This document shows positions 24,601 through 57,700 of a stretch of 64,000 nt of DNA, piece after piece. This DNA comes from Lytechinus pictus. Taxonomy: Eukaryota. The notes beneath the pieces were generated by a model that searched no databases, was not told the origin of the DNA, and was given only the letters and a program-made list of their open reading frames with translations. Every line of letters starts with the position of its first letter. The first letter of the stretch is position 1. The DNA lies in NCBI RefSeq assembly GCF_037042905.1, contig NC_087251.1, positions 26,972,001 through 27,036,000 on the forward strand. The letters are read 5' to 3'. The translations under genes and the position numbers were made by a program.

Positions 24601-26157
24601 GAAGGGAGAAAGGATGAATGCAAAGAAAAAATGTCGAGATGAAGAGGGAAGAAGGAAAGAAAAAAAGATAGGTAGAGTGAGAAGATGTCAAGGTTGTGTG
24701 TGTATGTGTGTTGGGGGGGTTAGAGAAGGGTAAGGAGTGAGTGATGGAGAAACAGACAGAAAGTGGGAGAAATAAATAGTTTGTAGACAATTTTGCATCT
24801 CTGAAGCCGGGATGTACTGCTGATAATGAAGGAAGGAAAACAACAGTAAAGAAGTAGGAAATACAACAACAAAAATGTTATTATTTGGAATAGAAAAGTT
24901 GGGAAAACAGAAAGTATTTCAGCGAAGATAAGAATAAGAGCTCACATTGTTGATGCTTCTCACAATGTTGCTGGGTATGTGTGTATAAAGATGGCTTATT
25001 AGCGCACTGTCATCATGAGTTAATCAGTACGAGTGTTGCAAGTTTGATCAGCTTTCAACCGCAGTTGGATTTTATTGATGGAGTTATGTTAAGGATAAAG
25101 TCATCAGACAGAGGCACTGCCACATTCCAAAGTCACATGGATGTCTTTGTTATTAATAGATCATTAATTAATCAATTAACTAATTCGTTCAGTTGATGTA
25201 AGCAGATCATTAAGTCTTGTTTTACTTTTTCAGTCATTTAAAAGTTAAATTAATTAATTCATTCATTTGAAGCGTTTTGGGCCTTATGGGGTAAAGCGCT
25301 GTATAAGTATTATTATTTTTATTATAAAAGCAGATAGAAAAGAAAATCAATGAAGATTTGGACAAAAACAATTTGTGAAATGATGTAGAATATGAATTTC
25401 TAACACGGATCATAAAATAACAATCATTATTTAAAGTAAATTGTTAAATGTTCAATACTATGTGTATATGAAATAAACAAAAATGCTCAATCCTTGAGCC
25501 ATTTAATGAACGGTATACATTGCATGCATTGTCATTCAATGTGCTGTATCATGGCTAGGACCCTAGCTGTTACATAATGTACTGATCACTCGTAGGGCTG
25601 CTTTTGACGATTGATCATATATGATAGTAAATGCTATCAATCGTAGAAATCAACATCACTATCACCATGCTTAATGATACAGGGGGCCCTGGTCATCCAT
25701 TCTACAACCAGCCTCCACAAAGTGAGGTTCTCCCCCTTCGACCGAAGCCCAGGCCCCGCCCCCTTATTCCATTCTCAACATTCCACCTTTCCAAACATGG
25801 CATTTAAAGGATGTGAGCTAGAGTTGAAAGGTCATAGCCTGGCATTCCTATCCCCTTAAAAATGACTGTCTGTCACTCATCAGTCCCATGCGCTTGACTG
25901 TACACACTGATCCAGACTTCAAAGCTATCAATAAGAATATCCATGTAATGCAGTGAAAAGCTTTGCGGCATTCTCTTTGTATCCATAGCATGCACGCAGG
26001 CTTGCTATGTCATTCTCCGAAGTTTGTTTGAAAAACAAATTTGAAGCAAGTTTCAAGGAAACGTCAATGAATTTCAGGAAATGGGATTCGGGTAAAAGGG
26101 ATTTTTTTTTTAGCTGTCGAAATACTGTGTGAACATCTTCATCCTAATGTTGCACAT

Positions 26158-26465
26158 AATGATAATTAACTTTTATTTGGTGCTTTATACATTGAAAAGA
26201 CGTCTCTTAGCACTTTACAGATATGTTATTACTGTAGTCATCGGATCCTGGTATGCCCGTATACAGTATAGGCCCTATGACTTTCTCCACTCCCTGGGGA
26301 ACAATCCAAATAGGCATACTACGTAGTCTTTTGCATCTTACTGGGTAACCATTTAACACCTGGATGGAGAGTGGCAGAGTGTGGATTGATGCCTTGCCAA
26401 AGGATGATATGCCGCGGTTGGATTCCAACACACAACCCTCTGATTACAAAGAGTCAGAACCGCTA
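26158..26465 (-). mobile_element. tRNA-derived SINE (degenerate)
   Basis: Homologous in opposite orientation to 37258-37550. Confidence 0.72.
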
Positions 26466-27658
26466 CAAAACAATGTTTCCATAATGCATATATAAACCTT
26501 CTTAATGTGTTCAATCTGCGTGGTTGTGTTAATATGCTACAGAGCGTAAGAAAGGAACAAGCCAAAAAAAAAATATTTTGCCTGAGGGCTCTTTTTGTTA
26601 GATTGTTCTTTGGGCCTGATGTTGCCATCATAAAATGATGAAAAGTGGCCCATTTCTGCCATGTAATAAACCAGAATTAAAAGTACAAGGTTTTACATCA
26701 AGCTAATTAAATGTGTATTAACACTATTTTTTGCCCCAAGAAAAACAAAGAAAGCCCCCATAAAGTAGAAAATAAGGCTGGCATCATGTGGGGAGGGTGT
26801 TTATCACCTTCAGAGTTATTTCTAGTTTATTTAACAAAAGGGTCAATAGTGTTTTTTTTCTGTTATGGATCATAGGGGTAGTTATGAAATAGGTAATTGG
26901 TCTACATGTGCTTTATCGACTAAAGTCTCATCCCACTTGGTCTAATGTACTTTTCATATTTCCTCTATTTACCAGTTTGTCTACAAACCACTTGGTTCCG
27001 AATTCTCCATTTGCGATCTCAAAATTCTATGGTGATTGACTAGCACGCGCCCGGCAGAAAAAGTGTCATATAAAGTGTGATCTTCATTTGTGCATGATAG
27101 TTTTGCATAGCTTTAGACAAGTATTCAAGCCGACAAAAGTATGATAATTGTATCAGATGGAGGTAAAAATTCCATAAAATAGGTTGGCATCACATTTTTA
27201 CTTTCTTGTTTGACGACCTTTGCACTGATTTCTCAATGATTTCTTAATGCTTGTTGAGAAGTTCGGATTTTCTCGGAATGGATGCACAAAGTAACAAACT
27301 TTTGCAGATGCTTTGCCAATAATTTCATAAATAAAGACCTTATTTTCAAGAAAATTACTCATTCAGGTAATTCTAGGTTGCTTTTTCTGTTTTTGACGTA
27401 TGCGACTGCGCAAAATATGGTAATGTGCAAATTATGGTCACACCACTATAAATCATAAGATATGTCTCAATGAATGCACCAAATGTCCATATTGCTATTT
27501 TTACCCACTAGCTTTATTTTCATCAGAAATGTAATTGGGCACTTAACATCAAATCAATTATGGCTAGTGGAGGTGCAAAGAAATAAAGCACTAACATGTG
27601 ACTTGTGGACCCATTCCGTATATATTGGCTAAACCCATGCATTTTCTTTGTCTTTCAG

Positions 27659-27728
27659 GACATTTGTGCGAATCCTCAGCTTTTCGTAGGTGGCACCAGC
27701 CGATTTGACGTTGAACAGGGACAGCTAG
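27659..27728 (+). CDS. Calpain exon (70 nt, phase 0-1): [23 protein letters not shown](G)
   Basis: tctttcag|GAC ... CTAG|gtgaga; matches the pre-active-site segment of CysPc. Confidence 0.95.
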
Positions 27729-39700: not shown

Positions 39701-42700
39701 CAATATTTGAAATGTCATAACTTTGTTATTCCTTGTCTTATTTTTAGGAAACTTCAGTGTGTTTGATTTATATGTTCAAACCATATTATTTTCAGTCTGG
39801 AGTACTCGTTTAAAGGCCAAGTCCACCCCAGAAAAACATTGATTTGTATAAGTAGAGAAAAATCAAACAAGAATTATGCTGACAGTTTTATTAACATCGG
39901 GTGTAAAATGAGAAAGTTAGCACATTTAAAGTTTCGCTTATTTTTCACAAAACAGTGATATGCACAACTCAGTGACATAAAAATGAGACAGTCGATGATG
40001 TCCCTCACTCACTATTTCTTTTTTTATTGTTTGTATTATACAATATTTCGTTTTCTACAAATTTGACAATAAGGACCGACTTGACTGAACCATATAGTAT
40101 TAAACCATGCAAATACCTCATGCTCAGGAAGGAATTGATCTTTTTTTCTCTTGTTAATGAGGAGAAAATTAGAAAATTTCATACTTAATAAAATACAAAA
40201 GAAATTCATGTAGTGAGTGGATGACGTCATCAGTTTCCTCATTTGCATACCGACCAGGATATGCATATATGTTTTGTGAAAGTAAGCAAAACTTTAAAAT
40301 GTCATAACTTTCTTATTTTACATCTGATTTTGATGAAGTTTTCAGTGTTATGCTTGTTGGATTTTTCTCCTTTTATTCAAATCAACTTTTTGTTGGGGTG
40401 GAATTTACCTTTAATTGCTTTAATGGGCATAGCAAGAAACTTCAGTTTAATTGCAAAATGAGTGTAATAAGTGTCAAACTCAATCACAATGGGCCATTTC
40501 AAGAAAGTTGCATTGCAACTGAATGAAAATCAACTCCAAACTTGTCTTCAGTCAAGGGTCTCAATCTTGATTTTGGACCTATACTTTATTTGGAACTGAA
40601 CGCAAGTTTCTAGTCAACATGATTTAATCTAGGCAATATTTTGTTGTCTTGATCAAGGACTGTCCATAATTTTTTAACCATCACAAACCATTTTTAGGGT
40701 AGATCAAAACTGGAATTGACTTATGGCAAATCAAATGACCTTTTTCGTTGTAGGTTGACGGCTCCTTTAATGCCTCAGTTGGACTCCCGAAGGACCATTT
40801 CCTGTACAATGCATCTACAGCTCGATCACCAACATTCACCAACACTCGTGAGATAAGCGGAAGATTCAAACTCCCACCAGGACGCTATGTGATCCTTCCT
40901 TCGACCTTTGAACCCAACCAAGAAGGTGACTTCCTCTTGCGTATCTTTTCCATGAAGGTGGCTAAGGGAGTGTAAGTTACATAACTATCCATTCTTTTCT
41001 ACTTTGTTCTTTCATATTTTTTTAATTTCATGTTTGTTAACGATAATACATTATATCTTATGAGCATTGAAAAATCATTTCAATATTTTTTTTTCATCAA
41101 ACACGGATTCTCGAAATTTAAGACAAATAAACCATTCTTGAAGCTTTGAACATTCGCTTGTAACTTGCCAGACATTCCAAGTCATACGGTGTATGATTTG
41201 CCATTTTATCTGAACCCAGTTGGTGTAATTAGACAAAGTGATTAGACCACTTGGGAATTATACCAAGTGGATTTTTAAAAAGATGACAAATAGACACAAT
41301 TGTTATTAGACCATCTGATGAGAGAGGTCCCTGCAAGGCATCTCTTACATGCCCACCACTCCTTTCCTCATACATACATCACAGCCAGACGAGGAATACA
41401 ATATCATTATGCATGTGTACAAACAAATTGCCCTTTACGGAACAGATGTAACAATCGGTACTGTACGAAGAACTCTCATTACTCTCATAACGTTAATGGT
41501 ATAGGAACTCAAAATCAAGGTATAGCGTAGAAGTCTACATATTCCCATACTACATGGACGTGAGCATCGTGTGTGTGCGCACAAGGAGAATATTTCACAG
41601 TGAAATCATGCGGCAGTGTGCTTTAATGACATACATAATGCCTGGCAGAGCTGGTGCCCAAGAAGAGAGAGGATTGTAATGATATTGAAGATATGAAATT
41701 AATTATGATGATGGTGTCCTATCAAATCCATATCATTATATTTAGGAAGTATGTGATCTTCAAAAACTTCATTGTAAACGCCCTTTTTCATTGAATTGTC
41801 CGTGTTTTCTTCATTCAATTAGCTGACAATGTTGAGCAGAACTTTCTTGTTAATTCCTATATATGATTTTCTGTGTGTGGTGCAGTGACCGTCGGCACAA
41901 GTTTGTCAGTTTATCATCACTTCAGTGATTTCATTGCCTTAGAGTTAACAACTGTTGTCTGAGTCTACAACCTTTAACGGTCAAATTTTTTAAAGACATT
42001 TTCTACAACTATTCATAATCATGCCAAGAATCATACTTTATCTTTAAACTTTGTCTTATTTGTTTTTTTTTCTCTTTTGTTTTAATAGGACCGTTAACCA
42101 ACAGTCTAGCATGGATATTAAACCACAGCAGGTAATACTCTTACTCACTTTTTAGTTATTTTCGTTTCGCAAATATATTTTAAAATTTGATGATATTGAT
42201 ATTGGATGTTCATGAAATGCTTATATGTCAGCTCATTTTACCTCTCAATTTTCATGTCTTCTGTCAATATAGTTTTTGCAAGTAATAAGATCGTGTCATG
42301 AAATTATGAAAATGAAAAGCAAGAATACACCTTTATTTTTAATGTTGCAAATATTTTTTTGTTTGTTTATTTGTTATTTATCAAAAATGTATTCATAGTT
42401 GTTTTTTTACGTGTAGCTGTGTATTTTTGATAAACATTTAAAAGGTTGTTTATCATCTCAGCTTCATATTTGTAGCAAATATAGTCATCTTACTCATCCC
42501 CCCCCCCAAAAAAAAGCTTTAAATGTTGCAAAGTTTGTTATTTTATGTGTATGTTTGCTGATATTTTTTTTTTTTTTTAAATTTATTTTCCTACAAATTC
42601 CATAAAACACAATAATTATTGATCATTGCTTTACATTGTCAACCTCGCTGTTTGCTTATCATTTGTCATCAGTTTTATGTGCTTCAAATATTTTGGTTTG

Positions 42701-45700
42701 TCATGAAATATATATAGTCAGCTACTTTTCCTTCAGGGCAAAAGTAACAAAAAATTGCAATTTCCATAATAATGACTGAACCATATATTCGTCATAATGA
42801 TTTTGGGAATTTTCTTTGCGTTTTTAGCAATATGTATTAATAAAGCTCAGTGTCATATTTGGAAAATGATGTTTGGTTTCAAAAGAATAAGCGTAAAGTT
42901 GAGTCTTGAGGTCTATCTATGGTGACCTCGAAGGATGAAGGGTTATGATGTAATACCTCGGTCACATTTGCTCTATGGCGGCCGTACGACGAGTCGAAAA
43001 CGTCCGTTTTATTCATTTTTATTCTATAAACCACCTATATGCAGCTGGTACAAGATATGTTAAAACGGCTGTTTTCGACTTGCCGCATGGCCGCCGTAGA
43101 GCAAATGTGACCGAGGTAATAGTGTTGTCATGACAGAGGGGTTATACCAAATGAAAGAACGCAACATATCTTTTTTGAGCAATGATAGCCAATTTCCTTT
43201 ATATTGTAATTGATATTTTCATAACCTTCTAGCAAAAGTGTAAAGGCAGTCCAGTATGTATGTTAGTCTAAAGTCTAAGCCACCAAAGTGTTTTACTACA
43301 TTATAAAATGAATAGCCCCCCCCCCCCACTCCCTTTCCCTTTAAAGATAAGGATACTTTGATATATTAGTTGATATTTTGATAACCTCCTTTGCAAGAAT
43401 GTAAAGGCAGCCTCGGATCCATATGTTGCTCCCAGTGCCCCTGTCAAGGTGAGATTCTGAAACCCCATCAAATGAAATCGTGTTCTTATCTCCTTCCAGG
43501 CTCTTAAAATACCTAATCTTTGTGCATGGTTTTCTATGTGATATGTGTGCACTGATTAAATGATCACTCGATCTAAGAATTCATGGTAATTATGTAGTGA
43601 ATGCTCCATGAATATACAGAACTTCATCTTTTAAACTCAAACAATAATTGTCTTTGTTGTAATATTAAAAATAAAATCATAATTCTACTGTTGAGTCAGG
43701 TTTTATACTACATATTTTTCAGCTTTTGCTTCCAACATATTCATTTAATTTTTTTTAAATGAAGAATTTAATAGCATATTTCAAAGTATCTTCCACACTT
43801 CCATATTTGTCATTAAAAGGGCATATCATATTTCCACTTTTCTTCCATATATTTGAATTAATTACTCATATTTATTACTGGATCTCTTAAATGGTTTATC
43901 TTTCATATCATGTTTTACATATCAACCTAAATCTATAAATGTTATAAAGTAAAAAAAAAAAAAAAGTTCTTTAATACAGGATCCAGTCTTGAGATATATA
44001 TACCTAATGATTTATACAGATTCCTGAATGTGCTCTTGACACTTGAAAATATTTCTATCCACTTTTTTCATTCTCATTAGCTCACTCGCCATGAAAAATA
44101 TCATGCATATCTATGTTCTGTGTATATACATTATGCACTTTTCCATTTAAATATACTCGCAACACTTGACAATTTTCCATTCACTTTTTTTCATTCCAAA
44201 TTGCTAATTTGTCATTTTTTTCGTCAACCATCTCATGTATGTTCTGTGTAAATGTTTCCACCTGTAAATATATCTATTCCAATGACCTTTGCATCTGCCC
44301 CTTCCTATACATTACTGCTGTAAAAAAGGTATATGATAGCTACGCTGCCCCTCCCGTCTCCGCACAATCATCTCAAGCTACCTTTGCTGCTGCTCCAACC
44401 TCCGTCAAGCAGGTGAGAGCAAGTTGTATGGTATCTGGAGATGACAGTTTTCGGATGACCAGCAGCATGCCTTCAACAAGATTTCCTTGTCATATTCAGT
44501 CAGTTTGCGAAGTCTCCTATTATTGCCTGTGCATGGTACTCATTGGTCATAGTGATTGTGTTCTAGAATAGAGAATAAAAAATCATAGTGTATTGACATT
44601 GATGATAATATTTTAATACCCAAGAATATGCAGTATATCATAGAGGTCCATTAGTTTTTGTTTGAAGATGAAGGTAGTAATGGCCCTCTGCATATTCTTC
44701 ATGGCAAATAGGTTACAGCTTTCATCCATTCAGTTCTTGTTCTCTTTGTGGTTGTATGAATGAGTATGGAGAGGAATTTTATTTGTTTATTCAGCCAAGC
44801 TACTTCCAGTCCTATGCACAGCCATGTTTTTCTCCAAGTCTCTCGCCGTCGGGTTACTCATCAAGTTACTCCACTACCAGTTACTCAACGACTGGTTATG
44901 CCCATTCCCCAACTGGTTACGTCCATTCGCCGGCATGGGATCAGACGTCGTATGACTTCACGAGGGTAGGCTACCCCAGAGGTTTCGACCAATCAGTTGG
45001 CCTCATCGCATGAGTTTGATAGTGATCGACGTGACCCTCATGAACACTTGTGTTTCCCCCTTCCTCTTCATAACAAGACATTTTTGAGAGCACTGAAGAA
45101 ATATGTGACACCATCACATCATCCTTTCTTTCACTTAGTGGACATGAGTTTTGACAGGAGTTTCATAGAGTATTCTTCTTCCCCTGTCGAGTTTTGATGT
45201 GAATTCATGTGCATACTGATTTGTCATGCTTCGATCATTGGTCATTTCTCTTACTTTTGTCAAGTTAAGCAATTTCTTGGCTGTTATTGATTCGTTGGAT
45301 TTGATACTTTGATTTTTTTCTCTCTTTCGGTTTGCAACATTCATTTGGTATGTGAGATGCTATTGGAGCAGACTGATGTTTACATTTTTCTTCTTAATTT
45401 GAAAAGTTTTGGGAATTTTTGAAAAAGAAACTTCACTTTTATTTTGCTATCTTCAGATCTTTATTTTTGTAAATAGATTCCCATATTAAAGTATGAGTCT
45501 CATTGTGAGTCCACCATTTCCCCCCGAAAACGTATAAGATAGCAAAGGCAATGAGTAAATGATAAATTTGAGAAAAATGCAACTGAACAATGAATCACAA
45601 GTGCAGGGACGAAACAAGCATTAATCAGATAGAACTAGCAGTGAGAACCCAGGAAAACTGTATTTTTTCATTGAAGTTTGTAATTAATTGGAAAGAGACA

Positions 45701-48700
45701 CACTGTTATGTATCCATGATTTTGAAGACAGAATGTTCAACCAACCTCTTCTGAATTTTTTATATGCGTGACATCACAATCACAATGTAAGGGCACAAGT
45801 TGCACAAGTTTCATACCATGTAATTACATGCAAGATTGTTTAAAAATCATTCTGTTAGATGTAAAAAGAAAATAATAGTGGTCCACCAACCAAACCTTGA
45901 GGTACTCCATAGTTCAAGTACATTGTAGTACTTCTATAGACATGTGACGAAGAACCTTATTGAATATAATGTGAAATATTTGAAGGAAGAAAACCAGTGT
46001 TCACTTTTGTATCTAGAATAATTGTCATATTGTATGATTCTTATGTTGAAATCAAAACATCACCAGAAACATTTTTTAGAAAGTGTTGTCAAGGGAGATG
46101 ATGCCCTCCAAATAACTTATTTTTTTAAAGTTGGTTATAACCAACAACAGAAAAGAAACCTGATGGTATGGAAAAAGACAAAAAGACATGAAAATGAACC
46201 AAAAAAACACAAACAAAATGAGCAGTCACCTGATACCATGCTCCTCAGTTTCCCACCTTTTAAAACAAAGATTACACTACATGTAGGTGACCATGCCTTT
46301 GTTAGTGCTTCACTATAAACCACTCTGCAATTGTCCATATGCATACCACTATGCAACCTTCAAACATTGATTGAACAAATATGATTCAAACAGATTAGCA
46401 AATTTCCCCAGGTTGTTGTTAATTATGTGTGCAGAAGAGGTACCATGCTTGGGGTGGTCTAATAAAGCTAGTTTTATAGGTCTGCATGGTATTAGAATCA
46501 CACTGGGATATGTTTTCATACTTAATGAACCCAAATCATTCCTGGGGGGTGTTTCACAAAGATTTGAATATGACTTAGAGTCGCGCTTAAATGCCTAGTT
46601 GCATGCGTTATAGAAGGCATAACCGCATTGGTCAGATCATGCAAAGAAGGCGCGCACTCCTGCATATTTATCAATTGCATTGCGCGTTGTATTTCAGATA
46701 CGCTTCGGCATTTAGGTGCGATTTAAATCATACTTAAATCTTTGTGAAACACCCCCTTGCTATTTTAAGAAAGTGGAAATGTAGTTTTTACCCTGTTCAA
46801 TTTTGACTAGTGATAATTCAATCTACTAAGGTCTTCATTGAGAATCTGATTTATCATCCAATAATTCGGGAATTGCTCCAGTTGTTTTTGAAGTTGCAAA
46901 ACAGCTTCATGAAACAGGTTCTTGTGATTTAATTTTGCATACTGCCCACTGCTTTGTTTTTTTTCCAATTGTTCAGTATATGTATGGTTATATAGTATAG
47001 AATCACAAGACAGTATACACCTATAGATATATGAGAAGTGGTTGGTAGTCTCTAATTTTTTGTTATAGTACTAAAAGTATAAGGTTTCATATCAAATAGA
47101 GAGTAATCAGATATATACATGCATCATTCTTGGGTTAATGATTTACATACTTTAAAAACAAATATTTAACGTTGGATTGCGGACTTTGTAGTTGAGGTTT
47201 TTTCGTTTGTGGAGGAAAATACATATGATTACTTTTAGTCTGATAAAGCAATTTTTTAATATTAAGGCTGTCTTCCATAAAATGTGAGTTTGAAGATGGT
47301 AAATGGATTTTATTTTTTATATATATACTGAATAAAACTAATAATACATTTGTTAATTCATTAATTCAGATAAACTATTCATTTTTAATCAGTAATTTAG
47401 AAATTGCATGCCATACATTCTGTATTGATAAGTAACATTTGTGCATACAGAGTTAACACAAAAGAAGGTCCAAGGTATTTTGTCCACATAATTGCTGCTA
47501 TATTTGCTCTTCACCAAACCAAATGTTGGAAGCATGGTTGCTTGATATATCTGTCCTGTTCACATCTCAACACGTCAATAATTTTTTTGGCAGAAGTTTT
47601 TAACTTTGGGATATATGCAGTATTTCCATATATTTCAAATATATAGACATTTATTTATTTAATTTGTTTTGTGGGGGGGGGGAGTTGGTGGCCAAAACTA
47701 AACTCATTGAAAGTAAACAGAATTCTCAGATCAGAGTTTCATCATAGGAATATGTGTGCTTTGTAACACCCATATAATGCGCCCTATTAGTATATATATA
47801 TATTGAGAAATACATCAGATACAAAATCTTAAGAAAGAGACAAAGATATAAAAATACATTGGATATACATGTAGGTACGGAACGTTCTGCGCAGACAAAT
47901 ATTTTGAGGAATGATCTATTGTGTTTTAGCAATGATTTGTCTATTCAGAATATTCCAGTGCCCCTGGGTTCACATGTTCAGAATCATGAAGTTCAGGTCT
48001 TGTAATAATTGTTTGAGATACAAACGAAGTGATGTAACTTCTATTTTGCGCTGCATAGCATGGAGATAAACTATTTAATGTCTTGAGGTAAGCATATCCA
48101 AGAGCAAATATCATAGGGTCAAAGCTCATTTCATTGGGAACGTGAAGTCACTGTACATGAGACATGCATTCTCAAATTTTGTCAATTCTCAATTCTCAAA
48201 CTAATTGAGGAAAATCAACTGATTATGCAGAATCGGAGTGAGATGCGTAAACCGGATCATGTAAGTCATTTGTATTAAAAAGTTATTCTCCAATATATAA
48301 GGTTTTGGAAAATTATGCAGAATGCAATCAGTGTATTTGAGAATGTTACTTGCCTGGTGACTAAGAATTGGTGAGGTATACTATTAGCAGTATTATGAAG
48401 TCAAATATTAGGAGCTTGTATCTAACTGTAATGTTTAAAAAGGTCCCACTCGGTTTAAAAAATAATCTTTTTATAAATCTAGGCCTATACTTTAAAACAT
48501 ATGGAATATGTTGGAAAGAATAAATTTGTATTTATAGTGATGTCTTGGTTACTGAGGAAGGTAATATATTTTTCTGGGGAGCCCTTTTCTATTATTATCT
48601 CGTGAAAATTTGGGTAGAAGTGTTTGGATTGTGAAGATGATCACCCTCAGTCTGGGTTTGGGACAATGGTTTGGTATAGCATGGATTCCCTTTAAGAAGG

Positions 48701-51700
48701 TTGGTTTATGTAAGAGCTAGAAGCAGCCAAGAAAAGGCAGAACATCATTATCATTTAACCTTCCTGATGTTTATTTTCCCTGGTTTCACGTAGATGATGA
48801 ATACCTTGGACTTCCCTGATGAATACAATCACATTTGATGAGAAGAATTGTGTAATGGTAGTGTTGATACATGGCCTGTTGAGAGTGGTTTTGATAAAAG
48901 TAGCTTAACAATCAATTATTTTGTTCATCACTACATTACTGTTACTGAAATATTTGTTGACAAATACTGTTCATGTGTGGACTCAGTAAGACATGTTCTC
49001 TTATTTCTGAAGTGTTATTATTAGTTTATGACTTTGTCATGCATTTAATCGATTTTCATACCATTCAAAATGGAGATTCCTTTGTGCAGATTGTTCTATG
49101 AACTGAAAAGTTCATATGAGTAAAGTGACTGTTCAAGTCCCCTATACTCATTTGGAGTTCATGTTATTGTGATAAATTAAAAAAAAGTTTTGTTGTAGGA
49201 TTGAACATTTATATTAACATGTATTAGTACAAGATGTGATTTGAGGTGAATGTTTGCTGTGATTGATTGTAGCATGTCATTTAATTTCTAAACATTTTTG
49301 CATACTGATGTGTTAACTGTGGAAAATATATAAAAAAAGAATCAGTTATGGTTTTTTTTCCAAAGATTAAACTGCAATTCATATGTAACTGTAAAGTATT
49401 ATTTATCACTAAAGTACTTTTGAAGGCCCTTTAGTTGAGCATATTTAAGTCATTAAGTTTTGATCCCTTGCAAGTTCAATAATGAGAATAATTATAGAGC
49501 CTGTCTGCAGCAAATTAGGTTATTTAACATAGGCTTTATGATATATGGGGACTATTTCACATACAGTAAAGTTTGACACATGTCCTCTAAACAGGATCTG
49601 ACCAGTGTGATGATGAGTTATAAGCCTCAAACAACTGGGATTTTAAAGTCACTCTTAACTCTTTGTGAAACAGCTCCATGGATCAAGAATTCATGAAACA
49701 TATGTATAATATTAGAGAAGCAAATGTATTTTATATTCTCTGTGGTGAACCTGGAGAAACTACATCCCCCCATCATGCACATCTTATGGAGGATGCAGAA
49801 TATATTGCCTATAGTTTAGGGAAGCTAAAAGTTATTCAAATCTGCAATGTTTATAATTACTGTATGCTTTTACACAAGACCCATGGAACATTCTTATACA
49901 TATGATAAATGACCAGAATGAAGTGTTATCAATATTTGAAAAAAAAGGTCTTTGGAATTCATTTGTATGAGTTTATCTGTATTTTTCTTTCACATTCAAG
50001 TTTTGTAACATTCTCACTATGGTTCACAGTCATCGTCCCCTACATAAATATATTCAATTCAAAAGTTGACCATTGCTTACCACTACAGACAAAGTCGGTC
50101 TCTGTACAAAGTAGTGTAAGGTTTAACAATCACCATAAATACGGAGCTCTACTTGTTCTTATGTTCTATATCTCATGTCATTGGTAATATTTTACACTGT
50201 CTATTAATCATTATTTGATTTCATAATTTTATCCTTGTAGCCACTTCCAGCTCAGGATGAGGCACAGACTGCCAAATTCCGAGAGTTCTTCAAGAAGCTC
50301 ACAGGGGATGTAAGTTCTTGTACAGTTTTCTCTTGTGTTAGGTACTATTTAACCCTATCTAGATTTTTCATGATAAATCCGTAACGCAAAAAGGTTGATG
50401 CGACGTTGCATAACTATTTTCATTCAAGTCTGATGCAACATGTTATATCACTAATATCAAACTTGAAATTGAAACCATGGACTCTACGCATAAAAGGTAT
50501 AATAATAACTTTTCCATCCATTGTTAACTACCATGGTACATTGCTCAACAGCCAATCAGAATCAAGGATTCCATGCAAATCATTAGTGAATGGCAAGGGG
50601 ATTATAATATAAAGCAAATAATCTTTATTTGTAAATTTGAAGGACAAACAATTACTTTCGAGTTAAGCTGGATGTAGCTATCTTTTGGAAGCAAAGCTGA
50701 GGAAAGATTGAGTGTATATGACATTCCACAGGCAAAATGGAAGGTTATAACTTTTGTTTATAGACCGCCCCCCCCCCCCCCCCCCCCGAGTCATATTCTC
50801 AGATAAAATACACACTTTAATTTTCAGTAAATGTATTATCTTTGGAATGGAAGCTCTTCATGTGTCCAGATGGAATATGATTTGATGACGTTTATTCTGT
50901 TCTTTTGACAGGATATGGAAGTGGACGCCTGGGAACTGCAGGAGATCTTAAACGCAGCCCTCAAACGAGGTGAGTGACCATACTATACTAAACCTCTAAT
51001 AGATTTAGGGTTTCAACACAGTGCAATCATTACATTACATTCCAAGCACAGACTGCCACCAACCCAATAGATCATTGCTCCAAGTTCAAGACTTCACATG
51101 GATCTCCTATCCCCCCTTTTTATTTAGACATTTGACACTAAAGGTTGCTGGAAGCAATAGCATAAAAACATCAGTCATAAAGTTTGCTGGGAATGAACTA
51201 AATATTTCTAATTCTTGACACTTTTTTCAAAAATGGCACTGATAAAAAATTCACTGTGTCAAATGACAGTATAGTTGTAATATTGTGTAGAAATAATATG
51301 AGAAACTTTTTCTTTTTCATATATCCTGTGTAATGATTTAGCTTTTGCAATGATCTGTGGGACCCCTGAATAATCAATCTCATTAAAAGCATTCAACCAT
51401 AAAGACAGTCACACGCTGGCCTTGTTATCTCACATTAACCCTTTTCATTATGCCATTGTACCCATACTTCATTCAAATCATGAGAAAGTGAATATTCAAT
51501 TTGACCCCGGTCACATCTATTCTGGTTCATTATTGATTAGCAAAATGGAAACAGCGCAAAATGTGACAAATCAAACGTCCCTAAACATTTCCCAGACCTT
51601 GCGTTTAGTCAGTCAATGTTCCCTGGAACATGTACTAAATCCAGTGTAGCGCCCTCGATGTCAATCTGGATCAGGGTCCCGTAACACAAAAGTTCTAGCA

Positions 51701-54700
51701 ATTAATCATATGATTGATTGTACATTGTGGTCAATGCAATCAATCGCAAAGATGATGATTGCTAGGCTTTGTGATATGGGCCCTTGCATTCCCACATAGA
51801 TGACTCCTTGGCCCGTATTCTGAAGTCAGGTTTAATTCAGACCATGGTCTAACTCTGTGCTAAAATTATGGGAAGCCAAAAGTGTCAAAATTTGTATTAA
51901 GTTGTATGTTTACTGTGCTCTTTCCTGATTCATCGATGGTGAAGACAATCATCTATTTATACTTCCCACACAAATATGAATGATTTGAGAGCCAAATGAG
52001 CTGAAATATTATATCTCTACTGCTAGTGATTTATGTAACAATTGGCTATCCATACTTAAACCACAACTTTAAACCTGAGTTTAAGTTAAACCCGACTTCA
52101 GAATACGGGCCCTTGTCTCTCCGGTTTGGGCATCCTAATGGAAATGCGTGGGCTTGTTTGGTTGGTGTGGCCTCCTTCACCACAGTCACACCAACTATAT
52201 ACCCACTCAAGACCGACCAAAACTATTACATTATTCCCTATGGCATACCATTACTCAATTTGGTGTCTGTTCCGTGGGTGCGACTGCAGCATAATATGCA
52301 CATAAACCGCTACTTTTGTAATGGGTGCCATTTCTTCGTGTATCATTAACCAATGCAAGGGGGAGCGTTTGCTGTGAACGGTTGATTGGAGTGGACTAAC
52401 CACCAATACCTCTTTCTGCTCAATTGTAGGAATAAGTTGGTAGAATAGTGAATGTGGTATACTTGTAGGAACAGGAGTAAAGAGAGTGTAGTGGTTTCAT
52501 GGTACAAGAGAAGACGACAAGAACACACTTGTCTAAGTTCACACTTGTCTCCTGAAAATGACAAGAACACAATTGTTGAAACGTTGAATTTTGATGGTCC
52601 TTTTCAGGACCAACGCGTGCCCTGAAAGAATACATAGTGAAACCACTGCACTCGTCTTCTTCGTCATGGGAACCTTCAGAAGGAACAGAGTAGTTTACAT
52701 AGGATTATTTATAATTCATTTGATTTTGTTTTCAAATAATAATTGAGGTAGCAGGATATGCTAATATTCATGATTAGGATGCAAAAGCTCAATATGATTA
52801 CAATCATTGCAATCACATTATACGCACACACATAGTACCTACACATCAGTGTACAGAGATACCTGGGTGATTGATTGACATGCTCGGTTGCTATGGGTGT
52901 CATAGCTATGTTAAAAACATAGCTAATGTCCAAGTTCACACTTGTCTCCTGAAAAAATTGAAAAATTAAATGCAAATTTTAAATCCACACTTCTGATTGT
53001 TAAAGATCGGTTGTATTTGATTTTTGTACTTCTATTTGATTGCAACTGTTTGTACTATAGGTCCATGCGCGCTGTGTCATTGTAGTTATGGCAACTGAGA
53101 AGTTTCTGCTTTAGAGTACAGAAATGATGTCATCTTATTGGTTGAAGGCAGGCATGCCATTAAAATTCAGCTTTTTTAATAGGGCTTCAATATCAGCATA
53201 AGAATCATTCATACATCAATTTATACATTTTAATCAAGAAGTGAACATATATATGTTGCTTTTGTTTTGTCCATTGTATGTTAATCTACCGGTATATATA
53301 TGGGAATTTTGAACAAACTTAACAAGGAAAAGATTAGTATAATAATGATTATTGACAAATGGGCTACTAATCTGTGATTAAAGAAACACAATTTATATAG
53401 TTCTATATATTGCTTATTTATTTCTGATTAAAATGACGGAAAGAAACATATTATGGAAAAAAATTATTTCCTAACCATTTGAAATTATCTTCTATTCAGT
53501 GTGCTTGCCCTATTGATAATCATGCATTCAAGTACCTGACTTTGATGATTATATATTAATGATTTAATATGCAAGACATAATACTATTGCATTCTGAGAG
53601 CTATTAACCAACATATTCATTCTTTAATTTCTCTTTTTTACCAATTGCATGAATAATATTGCTATGTAAATTGACAGAAGGTTAGTGAGTCAACTTAATA
53701 GCGATTCTGAAACAAAGGCTTCTGTCTGATACCTGATCAATAGGCTGCAATTTCTATACCTTTCAACTTTTATTTCATTTTTAATTGACTTTCAAACCAA
53801 ATCTCACCATCCTGCTAATAAAAAGCAATTTGTCTCCAATTTTAGAGTCCAAGAGAAAGTTTTTTTGTGCCACAAGTACATGTCATGTATCTTGATGTCA
53901 AAGCAGAAAAAAATGTTTGAATATGATTCCCTCATGCGTAGAATTGTCTGATGTTGCTTCTCTCAGCTCCAAACATTCACAGGACTTTTGATTCAGCTGT
54001 GTTTGTTTAGTCTTTATAGTTTCCTTGTGTTTGAAATTGTTTTAAAAGAAAAAATGATACATAGTTAATTGCATATATACAAAATTTAGAATAGATACAA
54101 ACAATTCTAGGCATCACATTCGAGACTGTCTACTTTAATGTCAAATAATTCTTTTGCATATTATTAAATTCTTTTGATTATTTGTAATTTTGTCTGTGAT
54201 AAAATTTTGATTGAAAATAAATTTGAAATAAAATAATAATTTTCATTGAATTGATTGGATGAATATTGCAACTTCTTCATGTTGATAGTGACCATGCTTG
54301 TATTTGATATTTATTTTGGAAACATGATCTTAATATGAGATGATATTCTTTTAATATCACTTTCTGTATGCTTTATTTCTTCAGTCAAATACCTTTCATT
54401 GTTTTTCCTAATGTTATTATTAAACCAATCAGTTGAAGATGTTTTTCATATTTACATTTTAAATTCTTGGTAGGATTTTAATTTGATTTACTAAATAATT
54501 ACATTGAAATAGTTTAATATAAAGCTAAAACCTATGCAGATACATTCCGATTTTTTATGCTGCTTATAGAAGACACATTAAAATAAGGATAACAAAATAA
54601 AATGATAAATAAAGGGGAAAGATTGTAGGTAGTATTTTAGGCATTCACATTCATATTCCACTCAATCCCAATACAGTGTTGCTGTCACTTTGGCAATTTC

Positions 54701-57700
54701 TTTTAATAGTGATTTTGTTAATTTTATGTCTGTTTATGTAGTTACTTCTGTTCAATTTTTTTCGTTTACATTTTCAGTGAGCAAGTATTGCATCACTTTG
54801 CCGATTGCATTTTCGTTCTGACTTGGAATTTTCACATTTCAAAAAGTGATTCTTTCTTAATGAGAGCTCATTTCATTTTCATATTTCTTAACAAAAGGGA
54901 AAAGTGTCTATTACGTTCATATTGAAATGCATATTATTTTGTGCTGTAACAATAGAAAATACCAAAGCCTTTAGTAGATTAAGAAGACGATTGCACAATT
55001 TTAATTTGGCTATACTTTAGTCTTTATTTTACCCTAGTAGTGTTAAGTAACAGCTTCATATTAATACTGTTTGCTGATTTTTCAATTTATCTTCAATTAT
55101 TCTGGCATGGGAAATGAAAATTATGAAATTGATGCAATGCTTACTTTTTATTCAATAATTGATGACAAACTCTTCTTAATGCTTTTCTTTCATTTTCTAA
55201 CCTTCACTCACCATAAGCACATTTTCACTGTACACATTTAATCAGCTAATGTATTTTCGCATGAGCTATTTGCATTTCCTCATTAGATGTACATGCATTT
55301 TTGTTCCAATTTCTCACCCTGTTTTGCATGATCTTCGCTTGCTTGTATCTTCCACGCTTTTCTCACATTCCCTGCCTACACTATTTGCTGTAACATGTGA
55401 TGTGTTTATTGTGCTTTCAACGTCTGTTATTGCTGTCTGCATGGATCAGTGCTCAATGGTAAGCAGAATGTGTAACGGTGATAACATGATTAATTTACTT
55501 CTCTCATGAAATGCTCACAACCTCGTGACAAGCAGATCTCCGAGGGAAAGATGACGGTAATTTCTGAAAAAAATATGATTATGAGATAGAAGCAAAGAAT
55601 GAAATGAAATCAAATTGTTTTCCTTGAATATCTTATTATCTTATGTAGGTTATGTAGATTTGAATCAGTGATAGGTCAATACACCATCACATGATCATAG
55701 CTGCAAGGATCGCATTTGTTATTTTGACGTCACCACAGTGAATGTAACTGCATTCAGTGCATTGTATTGTAAACTGCGGCGTTATATTCACTAAGGTGAC
55801 ATCACTCGCTGCTTATAAGTTGTGTAATCACATAATTTATTTGATGTACTTGTCGATCGCATTAAGCGCATGCTTATTTTATTTTTCCAAATTTTTTCTA
55901 CTATGACATAGATGGATCAGACTCTGATGTTGAATCTACATAGACTATATGATATAATAACAGATATTGCCTGGTCTAACTTTTTAACAAATAACATTTC
56001 AACATTTCAGCTATGTAATCCCTTGGAAAATTCTGTAGAGGAAATGAATTGTTATATTCAAATGCTAGGTAGGCAGTACCTGTATGTTCTTGTTTCCAAA
56101 GAATATTTTTCAAAGTGAAAATATAAGTAGGATGTTGAATGTAAAATTACTAATTCTCTTTCATTTTGTGCATGCTTACTGATTTTATAACCTGTTAAGA
56201 GGTCAACTCCACCCCAGATGAATGTAGATTTTAATCAATAGAAAAAAAATCAAACGAGCAAAACCCTGAAAATTTCTTCAAAGTCGGATGTAAATAAAGA
56301 TAGTTTTGAGGCTATTTCACAAAGCAGTTATATATGTATGCACAATTCAGTGACATACAAATGAGAGTAAATGACGTCCTTCACGCAATATTTATTTTTT
56401 ATTGATAGTTTGTATTATACCAAATTTCAATGAGTTCAGATTTTACAATATGGACCAACTGGACTGAACCATAAAAGGTTAAAACAATGGTAGTTCCACA
56501 TGTTCATGGTGGAATAAAGAAAAATTTACAGGACAATTAGCTACAAATTAGAATATTTCATGTAATAAACTATAAAATAAATAGTGAGTGGGTGACATCA
56601 TCAGTCCCCACATTTGCATACCGATCAGGATGTGCATATAATTGTTTTGTGAAAATAAGCAAAGCTTAATAATGTCAAACTTTCTTATATTACATCTGAT
56701 TTTGATGAAATTTTCAGTGTTGTGATATTTAATTTTATTTTTTTTAAATTCAAATCAACTTTTTTTTGTTGGGGTGGAGTTGTCCATGACCATGCAATAA
56801 CAAAAATAGTCAACATTTTGGCAATTTTTCTTTCATGAGGAATTGATTACTTCAATTATACTCTGATTAGTAAATGTTTAAAGATAACATAACATTATTT
56901 CCCTTTCTTATACAGGATGCAAGTATTCTTACTCAGTGTTGCATGATAGATAAGCATGCTCTGTTAATTATTTCATTTTTATTGGAATATATTTATCCCT
57001 TTAGTAGTGCAAGTTTATTAGAAAAAGATTTAGGTACTTGTTATATGTGTATCAATTTATTTATGTAGGCAGCTATTGATTGTTTTATTTATTTCATTTC
57101 TATATCTATTTCTAGAGCTTCAGGGCGGTGGATTCAGCCTGGAATCTTGCAAGAGTATGGTTGCTCTTACCGATGTATCCTTTTTGGACTGTTTTTATTG
57201 AAGGAAAAATTCTCCCATTTAGTAATTTAATCTAGATTTATTGGTGATGGTGGTGATTGGTGGGGATTTTTTACCTGATTGCTAAGAAAGCATGAATGCT
57301 TGTAAGCAAGCAACCAGAGGACCGACGGCTTAAGGTCCTCTCCGAAGGACCTGGTAATGAGGATTAATGCCTTACCAAAGGGCACTAGCGCACCAAGTGG
57401 GAATCAAACCCGGGTCACCGGAATATGAATCCCCCGCTCTACCGACTGAGCTATCGCGCCTTATTGCTTAACATTCCATAAGTGTAATGTAAAAAGAAAA
57501 AAAAATAGGGTTGTATGAAAATAGTTTGAATACTATGATACAACATGTACACCATTAAAGTATTAGGGAACTTCCCCAATATCTTTACATAGATGTTTCA
57601 TTTTCTAGAAAAATAATATAATAGAATAGAAAGAATAGAAAAGAATAGAAAAGAATAGAATAGAATAGAAAAGAATATAATAGAATAGAATAGAAAAGAA

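Follow-up and report, generated by a model that had tools for sequence, protein, structure and literature searches.

Among the closest described counterparts of the exon considered here are the linker isoforms of echinoderm calpain-9/A/B-like proteins (P0002, P0017-P0022, P0027, P0006, P0035, P0036, P0008, and P0010), which come from the same gene and carry their inserts at the same junction of C2L with PEF, after ...KPQQ or ...PKQ. Protein models with an insert at this junction exist for L. variegatus, S. purpuratus, Amphiura (three kinds), and Patiria and Asterias (one each); the echinoderm inserts are 8-28 amino acids (aa) long and of phase 0, and the candidate exon described below is about twice as long as the longest. 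In the mollusc Aplysia, AplCCal1 has splice inserts a, b, and c between C2L and PEF; like the candidate's host it is a classical calpain of an invertebrate and has more than one optional insert here, but its inserts, as given in the accessible part of PMC5650170, are 4-14 aa long and were seen in cDNA/transcriptome data, whereas the candidate is 57 aa long, Ser/Tyr-rich, and sequence-based, and the likeness is one of position only. In vertebrates, IS2 of CAPN3 lies in the C2L-PEF linker, is alternatively spliced, and affects autolysis, according to the accessible part of PMC3444232, which bears out the position that the original prediction had given for IS2. Library-wide searches (at E 10 and at E 0.001) gave no sequence homology of the candidate to IS2, and this analogy, too, is one of position.

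Calpains without the PEF domain offer a second comparison. The truncated CysPc-C2L architecture is that of the Drosophila CalpA short form and of crustacean CalpM. A CalpA splice form is not described in the accessible parts of PMC11387712 and PMC3771957, and a literature search for CalpM returned a match on Trypanosoma only. Truncated CysPc-C2L calpains of Aplysia (AplTrunc1-3) are the products of separate genes (accessible part of PMC5650170); the same architecture would result from reading through the donor of the candidate exon, a product that is hypothetical here. Closer still is isoform X7 of L. variegatus (P0001, XP_041468638.1), an automated model of the orthologous gene that is 587 aa long, lacks an EF-hand, and ends within the same intron as the candidate's read-through form; unlike that form, it uses a neighbouring exon (44329-44412), and its tail is frameshifted in the species of the window.

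The window is the whole stretch of Lytechinus pictus DNA analysed, 64,000 nucleotides (nt) long; its host gene and the linker features below lie on the plus strand. Nineteen coding exons (27659-63323) were mapped by exon-by-exon peptide match to the NCBI L. pictus model P0018, letter for letter with one junction residue unmapped, and the joined coding frame is open and ends in a stop. Pfam matches to the exons in order were Peptidase_C2 (E 2.7e-34 and 1.4e-23), Calpain_III, and EF-hand; the mapped exons contain the GDCW, GHAY, and RNPW motifs of the CysPc core, followed by C2L and a C-terminal PEF region, which the P0018 mapping also places there. Judged by these matches, the host is a classical calpain (CysPc-C2L-PEF), a protease activated by calcium. 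When P0018 is aligned with model P0017 of L. variegatus, 624 of 647 positions are identical. P0018 begins at 27659 with a 4-aa start that did not map, and the mapping covers 27659 onward, 5' exons lying further upstream; the 5' exons seen in L. variegatus models may fall in 25600-27659, where the MAFKGCELELKG frame near 25800 may be an alternative start of the kind found in S. purpuratus P0024.

The linker intron is bounded by a constitutive linker exon with a phase-0 donor (42089-42131) and a constitutive exon with a phase-0 acceptor (50241-50309) that holds the linker end and the start of the PEF region, the latter placed by an assembled contig of run X1 and by the mapping of P0018. Two optional exons are known within it. 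One, an annotated alternative exon of 17 aa (43398-43448; P0018, P0002, P0017, P0021, and P0022), had been overlooked in the original prediction. The other is a conserved alternative exon of 28 aa (44329-44412), recognized by matches to P0027 (76% over 21 aa) and P0001 (89% over 28 aa); it is a cassette in the S. purpuratus record P0027 and a read-through last exon in L. variegatus isoform X7. The phase-0 donors at 42131, 43448, and 44412 and the phase-0 acceptor at 50241 all fit the phase of the candidate. That the three linker exons arose by duplication of each other is not supported (shuffle p 0.21-0.62). A possible 21-nt phase-0 micro-exon (QKCKGSP; site scores 5.5 and 5.7) lies at 43233-43253; its acceptor region recurs 160 nt downstream, at exon 43398, with 82-89% agreement, and RNA runs of a close relative of the window's species (organism B) gave no cover over it.

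The candidate alternative exon itself (44795-44965) has the anatomy that had been claimed for it: the acceptor tttattcag/CCA at 44795 opens a 72-codon frame that ends at TGA 45011-45013, and an in-phase donor, AGG/gtaggc, follows 44965, giving an exon of 171 nt or 57 aa with phase 0 at both ends. Its richness in Ser, Tyr, Thr, and Pro is likewise as described (63% of the 57 aa; 20% in the 15-aa tail), and of the internal repeat pairs (44864-44932) the reported one lies at 44891-44932 and an additional one (SYSTT twice) at 44864-44893. Placement at the C2L-PEF junction, preservation of the frame, and GT-AG ends are those of a cassette exon. Splice sites were scored with matrices trained on the sites of this gene, the acceptor reference being a leave-one-out set of 17 constitutive acceptors. 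The candidate acceptor (44775-44794) scores 7.0 against a constitutive median of 6.4, a score reached by 50 of 1624 intronic AG dinucleotides. The donor is weak (3.6), below 15 of 16 constitutive donors and matched by 304 of 1832 intronic GT dinucleotides; reading past it (44966-45013) adds 15 codons before the TGA.

In composition the stretch resembles the coding exons of the gene (mean G+C 48%) and differs from the introns (34%): within the gene's 32,735 intronic bases, only 2 further places reach its G+C content of 51.5% over 171 nt, and G+C steps from 34% (44701-44794) to 50% at the acceptor, with the best change point at 44792. Only one other open phase-0 pseudo-exon has both splice sites equally good, and its G+C content is 31%; in these two respects the candidate exceeds chance. 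Between the members of the two repeat pairs there are seven differences, six of them at synonymous third positions in the predicted frame (p 0.007; nominal 0.02 once three frames are allowed for). With a third, weaker pair included, the count becomes eight synonymous and three not. The candidate is single copy in the genome, both as protein and as DNA. An open 57-codon frame is expected in 12% of base shuffles, and all three plus-strand frames across the candidate are open for 52 or more codons, which occurs in 0.085% of base shuffles and in 9% of frame-0 codon shuffles, a point in favour of coding; codon-usage scores over the three frames (4.1, -4.1, and 10.7) do not single out frame 0. The open frame alone, the donor strength, and the read-through stop are not beyond chance. 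For the most part the stretch nevertheless appears to be coding, and this look (single copy, G+C step, acceptor, in-phase ends, and repeat synonymy) suggests a likely exon; that it is used as one at all we regard as somewhat probable.

Our preferred reading, held tentatively and as a good possibility short of probable, is that 44795-44965 is a third, rarely included alternative linker exon of the ordinary kind, with candidate status. In some tissue or stage, the donor at 42131 (or at 43448 or 44412) would join 44795, and the weak donor at 44965 would join 50241. The product would be a calpain of about 736 aa with its PEF domain on a longer, probably disordered, phosphorylatable S/Y/T/P tether, which, in the manner of the CAPN3 linker inserts, could tune autolysis, the binding of partners, or the response to calcium. 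Missing the weak donor would leave the intron in the RNA; the predicted protein, about 579 aa long and without PEF, would possibly be a by-product.

The alternative that survives best denies the stretch any use as an exon: it would be intronic, present in unspliced pre-mRNA or in the 3' untranslated region of a transcript that reads through exon 44329, and its coding look would be owed to a decayed exon or a regulatory island. We take it seriously as a possibility while holding it rather doubtful. RNA bears on it directly. Of 19 candidate runs, 8 were aligned: X1 from the window's species, the raw RNA runs X16-X18, and X2, X3, X4, and X6 from organism B, in which, on our reading of the contigs, indels after 44412 give the isoform X7 tail. 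Among the other 11, X5 and X7-X13 have word shares of 0.06-0.12, close to the share expected from a spliced 171-nt exon. Selection was for runs that contain 44300-45300, a choice that favours unspliced contigs, and rare forms are lost from contigs; X1 consists of contigs of the window's species whose RNA status is a guess, and no sequence-containing run is recorded as RNA, so containment was not used as evidence. Joints at 44795 or 44965 were seen in none of the eight runs, and the predicted transcripts (42131 or 44412 to 44795, and 44965 to 50241) thus failed to appear in any of them, as expected for an unused stretch. The control, the conserved cassette 44329-44412, is jointless in the same eight runs, however, and the junction test therefore has little power. 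Exon 43398 has one upstream joint, from 42131 (run X2), after which the RNA reads past the exon's own donor into the intron.

The main transcript, an X1 contig of depth 1489.7, joins 40971 to 42089, 42131 to 50241, and 50309 to 50912, skipping the candidate. Cover of the candidate in X1 is a single unspliced 311-nt contig (44847-45156, depth 2.81), and X1 has intronic contigs of like depth elsewhere (49878-50039, 2.6; 50983-51100, 7.09), which again suits an unused stretch. Depth in the bin 44461-44811 is zero in X1 and X16-X18, and therefore no joint at 44795 is hidden in these runs. In the raw RNA of X16-X18, about 6/100 of each of which was sampled, exon bins stay below 0.4 with at most two reads at any joint; the gene is so barely covered that a lack of reads over the candidate in these runs carries no weight. 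In organism B, run X6 leaves the candidate uncovered, and unspliced contigs extend over 44322-45319 (X4), 44603-45483 (X2), and 44935-45319 (X3). Such unspliced contigs run over the acceptor (X2 and X4) and over the donor (X1, X2, X3, and X4) at depths of 2.8-9.3 that are level with plain intron at 45500-46200. These contigs fully explain the organism B bin depths over 44835-44943, and organism B cover is flat from about 44130 to about 46200, a further point in favour of an unused stretch. Short interspersed repeats with inverted ends at 42930-43130, 46540-46760, and 50520-50580 draw numerous RNA reads that stem from other genomic places. The candidate exon is not common in these runs; blank RNA does not mean that it is unused.

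A direct join of 42131 to 50241, skipping the candidate, also occurs in all three of the intronless processed copies of the calpain mRNA found in genome G000 (contig C8, about 8.303-8.311 Mb; locus L012 6164-7953, and locus L013 498-1842 and 3387-4731). The copies are 93-100% identical per exon and, together with gag/pol-like sequence of a retrotransposon, putatively of the Ty3/Gypsy type, make up a tandem array of about 2.9 kb. Two begin as an in-frame gag-like/calpain fusion, and all three have in-frame stops. The three copies stem from one event, and the array looks as if a retrotransposon had captured a host mRNA and tandem copying had then followed. A 9-nt piece of these copies matches 8 of 9 bases of a candidate unannotated micro-exon in the PEF region (55450-55458; VLN, phase 1-1). 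With a candidate 3-nt micro-exon at 53678-53680, which would give the extra Glu of L. variegatus isoform X3 (P0002), and an annotated exon of 7-8 aa with a tandem acceptor (55533/55536-55556), it forms a second micro-exon cluster.

Conservation was judged indirectly, from organism B bin depths and gap counts and without base-level letters for the candidate or its splice sites. By these counts no base is missing in 44835-45052 and, if alleles agree between runs, no insertion falls in 44603-44934; 13 inserted letters lie somewhere in 44935-45319. This scarcity of indels, together with the sharp G+C step at a strong acceptor, the synonymous bias in the repeats, and the in-phase ends, speaks against an unused stretch. 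In its favour, one base is missing in 44739-44834 (X2 and X4; bin depths give 44726-44834, and the X3 piece reaching 44738 is gap-free). The deletion could fall in the T run at 44777 or the T5 run at 44827, and a position after 44794 would mean that the candidate frame is not conserved. Over 44935-45319, the 3' part of the candidate and its flank, 8 of 385 bases differ, while the distal intron has differences at 35 of 573 (p 0.004), and the flanks of the two known alternative exons are similarly low (7/281 and 4/191 differences); taken across contigs 44322-45319 and 44603-45483 in full, substitutions are not significantly rarer than in the distal intron (p 0.25 and 0.06).

Protein records favour the unused stretch as well. 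Homologue searches came back empty: the 72-aa peptide had no homologue among 31 candidates of the longer protein search, none in the near search, and none at E 0.001 among representatives, and a metagenome scan of 591 stretches gave no match. The candidate peptide is absent from all 53 calpain proteins compared, including all 8 Lytechinus cluster members; Pfam returned no match to the 72 aa, the ESM Atlas gave no usable match, and a scan with the C2L exon yielded nine loci with no credible candidate match (best E 0.21). No alignment of the candidate to the known echinoderm linker inserts was found, and a literature search found nothing on splicing of this gene in urchins. Isoform X7 of L. variegatus, moreover, stops before the stretch.

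The original prediction had gone further, proposing that 44795 is also the start of an alternative last exon (by itself or in addition to cassette use), ended by intronic polyadenylation and yielding a regulated PEF-less calpain with a Ser/Tyr-rich tail. We consider this unlikely. It can draw on the weak donor, on a G+C content of 54% from donor to stop in an island whose 3' edge (about 45065-45070) lies past both, on the good conservation of 44935-45319, and on the donor being read through by contigs in four runs. The conserved downstream flanks mark the two cassette exons too, no RNA enters at 44795, and donor-crossing contigs, where they extend that far, run over the acceptor as well (X2 and X4). 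An in-frame stop does follow the skipped donor, but in each of the 18 exons tested a stop lies 1-25 codons past the donor, at 15 or more in 3 of them, so a read-through of 15 codons is ordinary and TGA 45011-45013 is no argument for a second fate. Contigs cannot show transcript ends, and no 3' end was seen after the stop, cover continuing to about 46200; the first AATAAA lies at 46461, about 1.45 kb downstream, and an ATTAAA at 45485 seems not to be kept in organism B, where a contig of X2 ends loosely at 45483.

Of the dual-fate proposal, the exon-like anatomy and the linker position are supported, and L. variegatus does have a PEF-less model of this gene; the model enters exon 44329-44412 rather than 44795, reads through its donor, and stops before 44795. 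In the window this read-through (44329-44571) gives a 52-aa tail, which is frameshifted in isoform X7, and an AATAAA lies at 44574, 3 nt after its stop (AATGAA in organism B). Because they are frameshifted between two species, tails of the X7 type are probably not under protein constraint, which also counts against a last exon. As argued, the dual-fate idea is weak.

A more elaborate version is improbable to a still greater degree. Each of the three linker exons contains one YxxP motif (YVAP, YAAP, and YAQP; shuffle p 0.018, the motif having been picked post hoc), and the intron might thus hold a bank of linker exons each with a Tyr-x-x-Pro, in which the 44795 exon would act as a switch: spliced, it would give a calcium-regulated calpain with a long phosphotyrosine-rich tether, and read through, a PEF-less calpain ending in that tail. 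Abl/Src have YxxP sites among their targets, and these sites bind the SH2 domains of Crk (accessible part of PMC6029619); a Crk/Abl link to the linker motifs would be a post hoc lead drawn by analogy. A transposon or repeat origin of the candidate is rejected because it is single copy, and a separate gene or minus-strand frame is rejected as well, with stops in all three minus frames, mirror frame included.

Optional inserts at this spot in calpains are already known, and the general idea is present in the databases by way of the neighbouring exon; the candidate exon 44795-44965 itself is unannotated and at present an annotation lead. How truncated calpains are regulated is described as an open question in the accessible part of PMC5650170, and if the read-through form is real, the locus would provide a classical and a truncated calpain as a same-gene pair. 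If used, our preferred third linker exon would add an unannotated isoform to the urchin calpain and would extend the pattern of the C2L-PEF linker as a hot spot for optional exons in echinoderm, mollusc, and vertebrate calpains.
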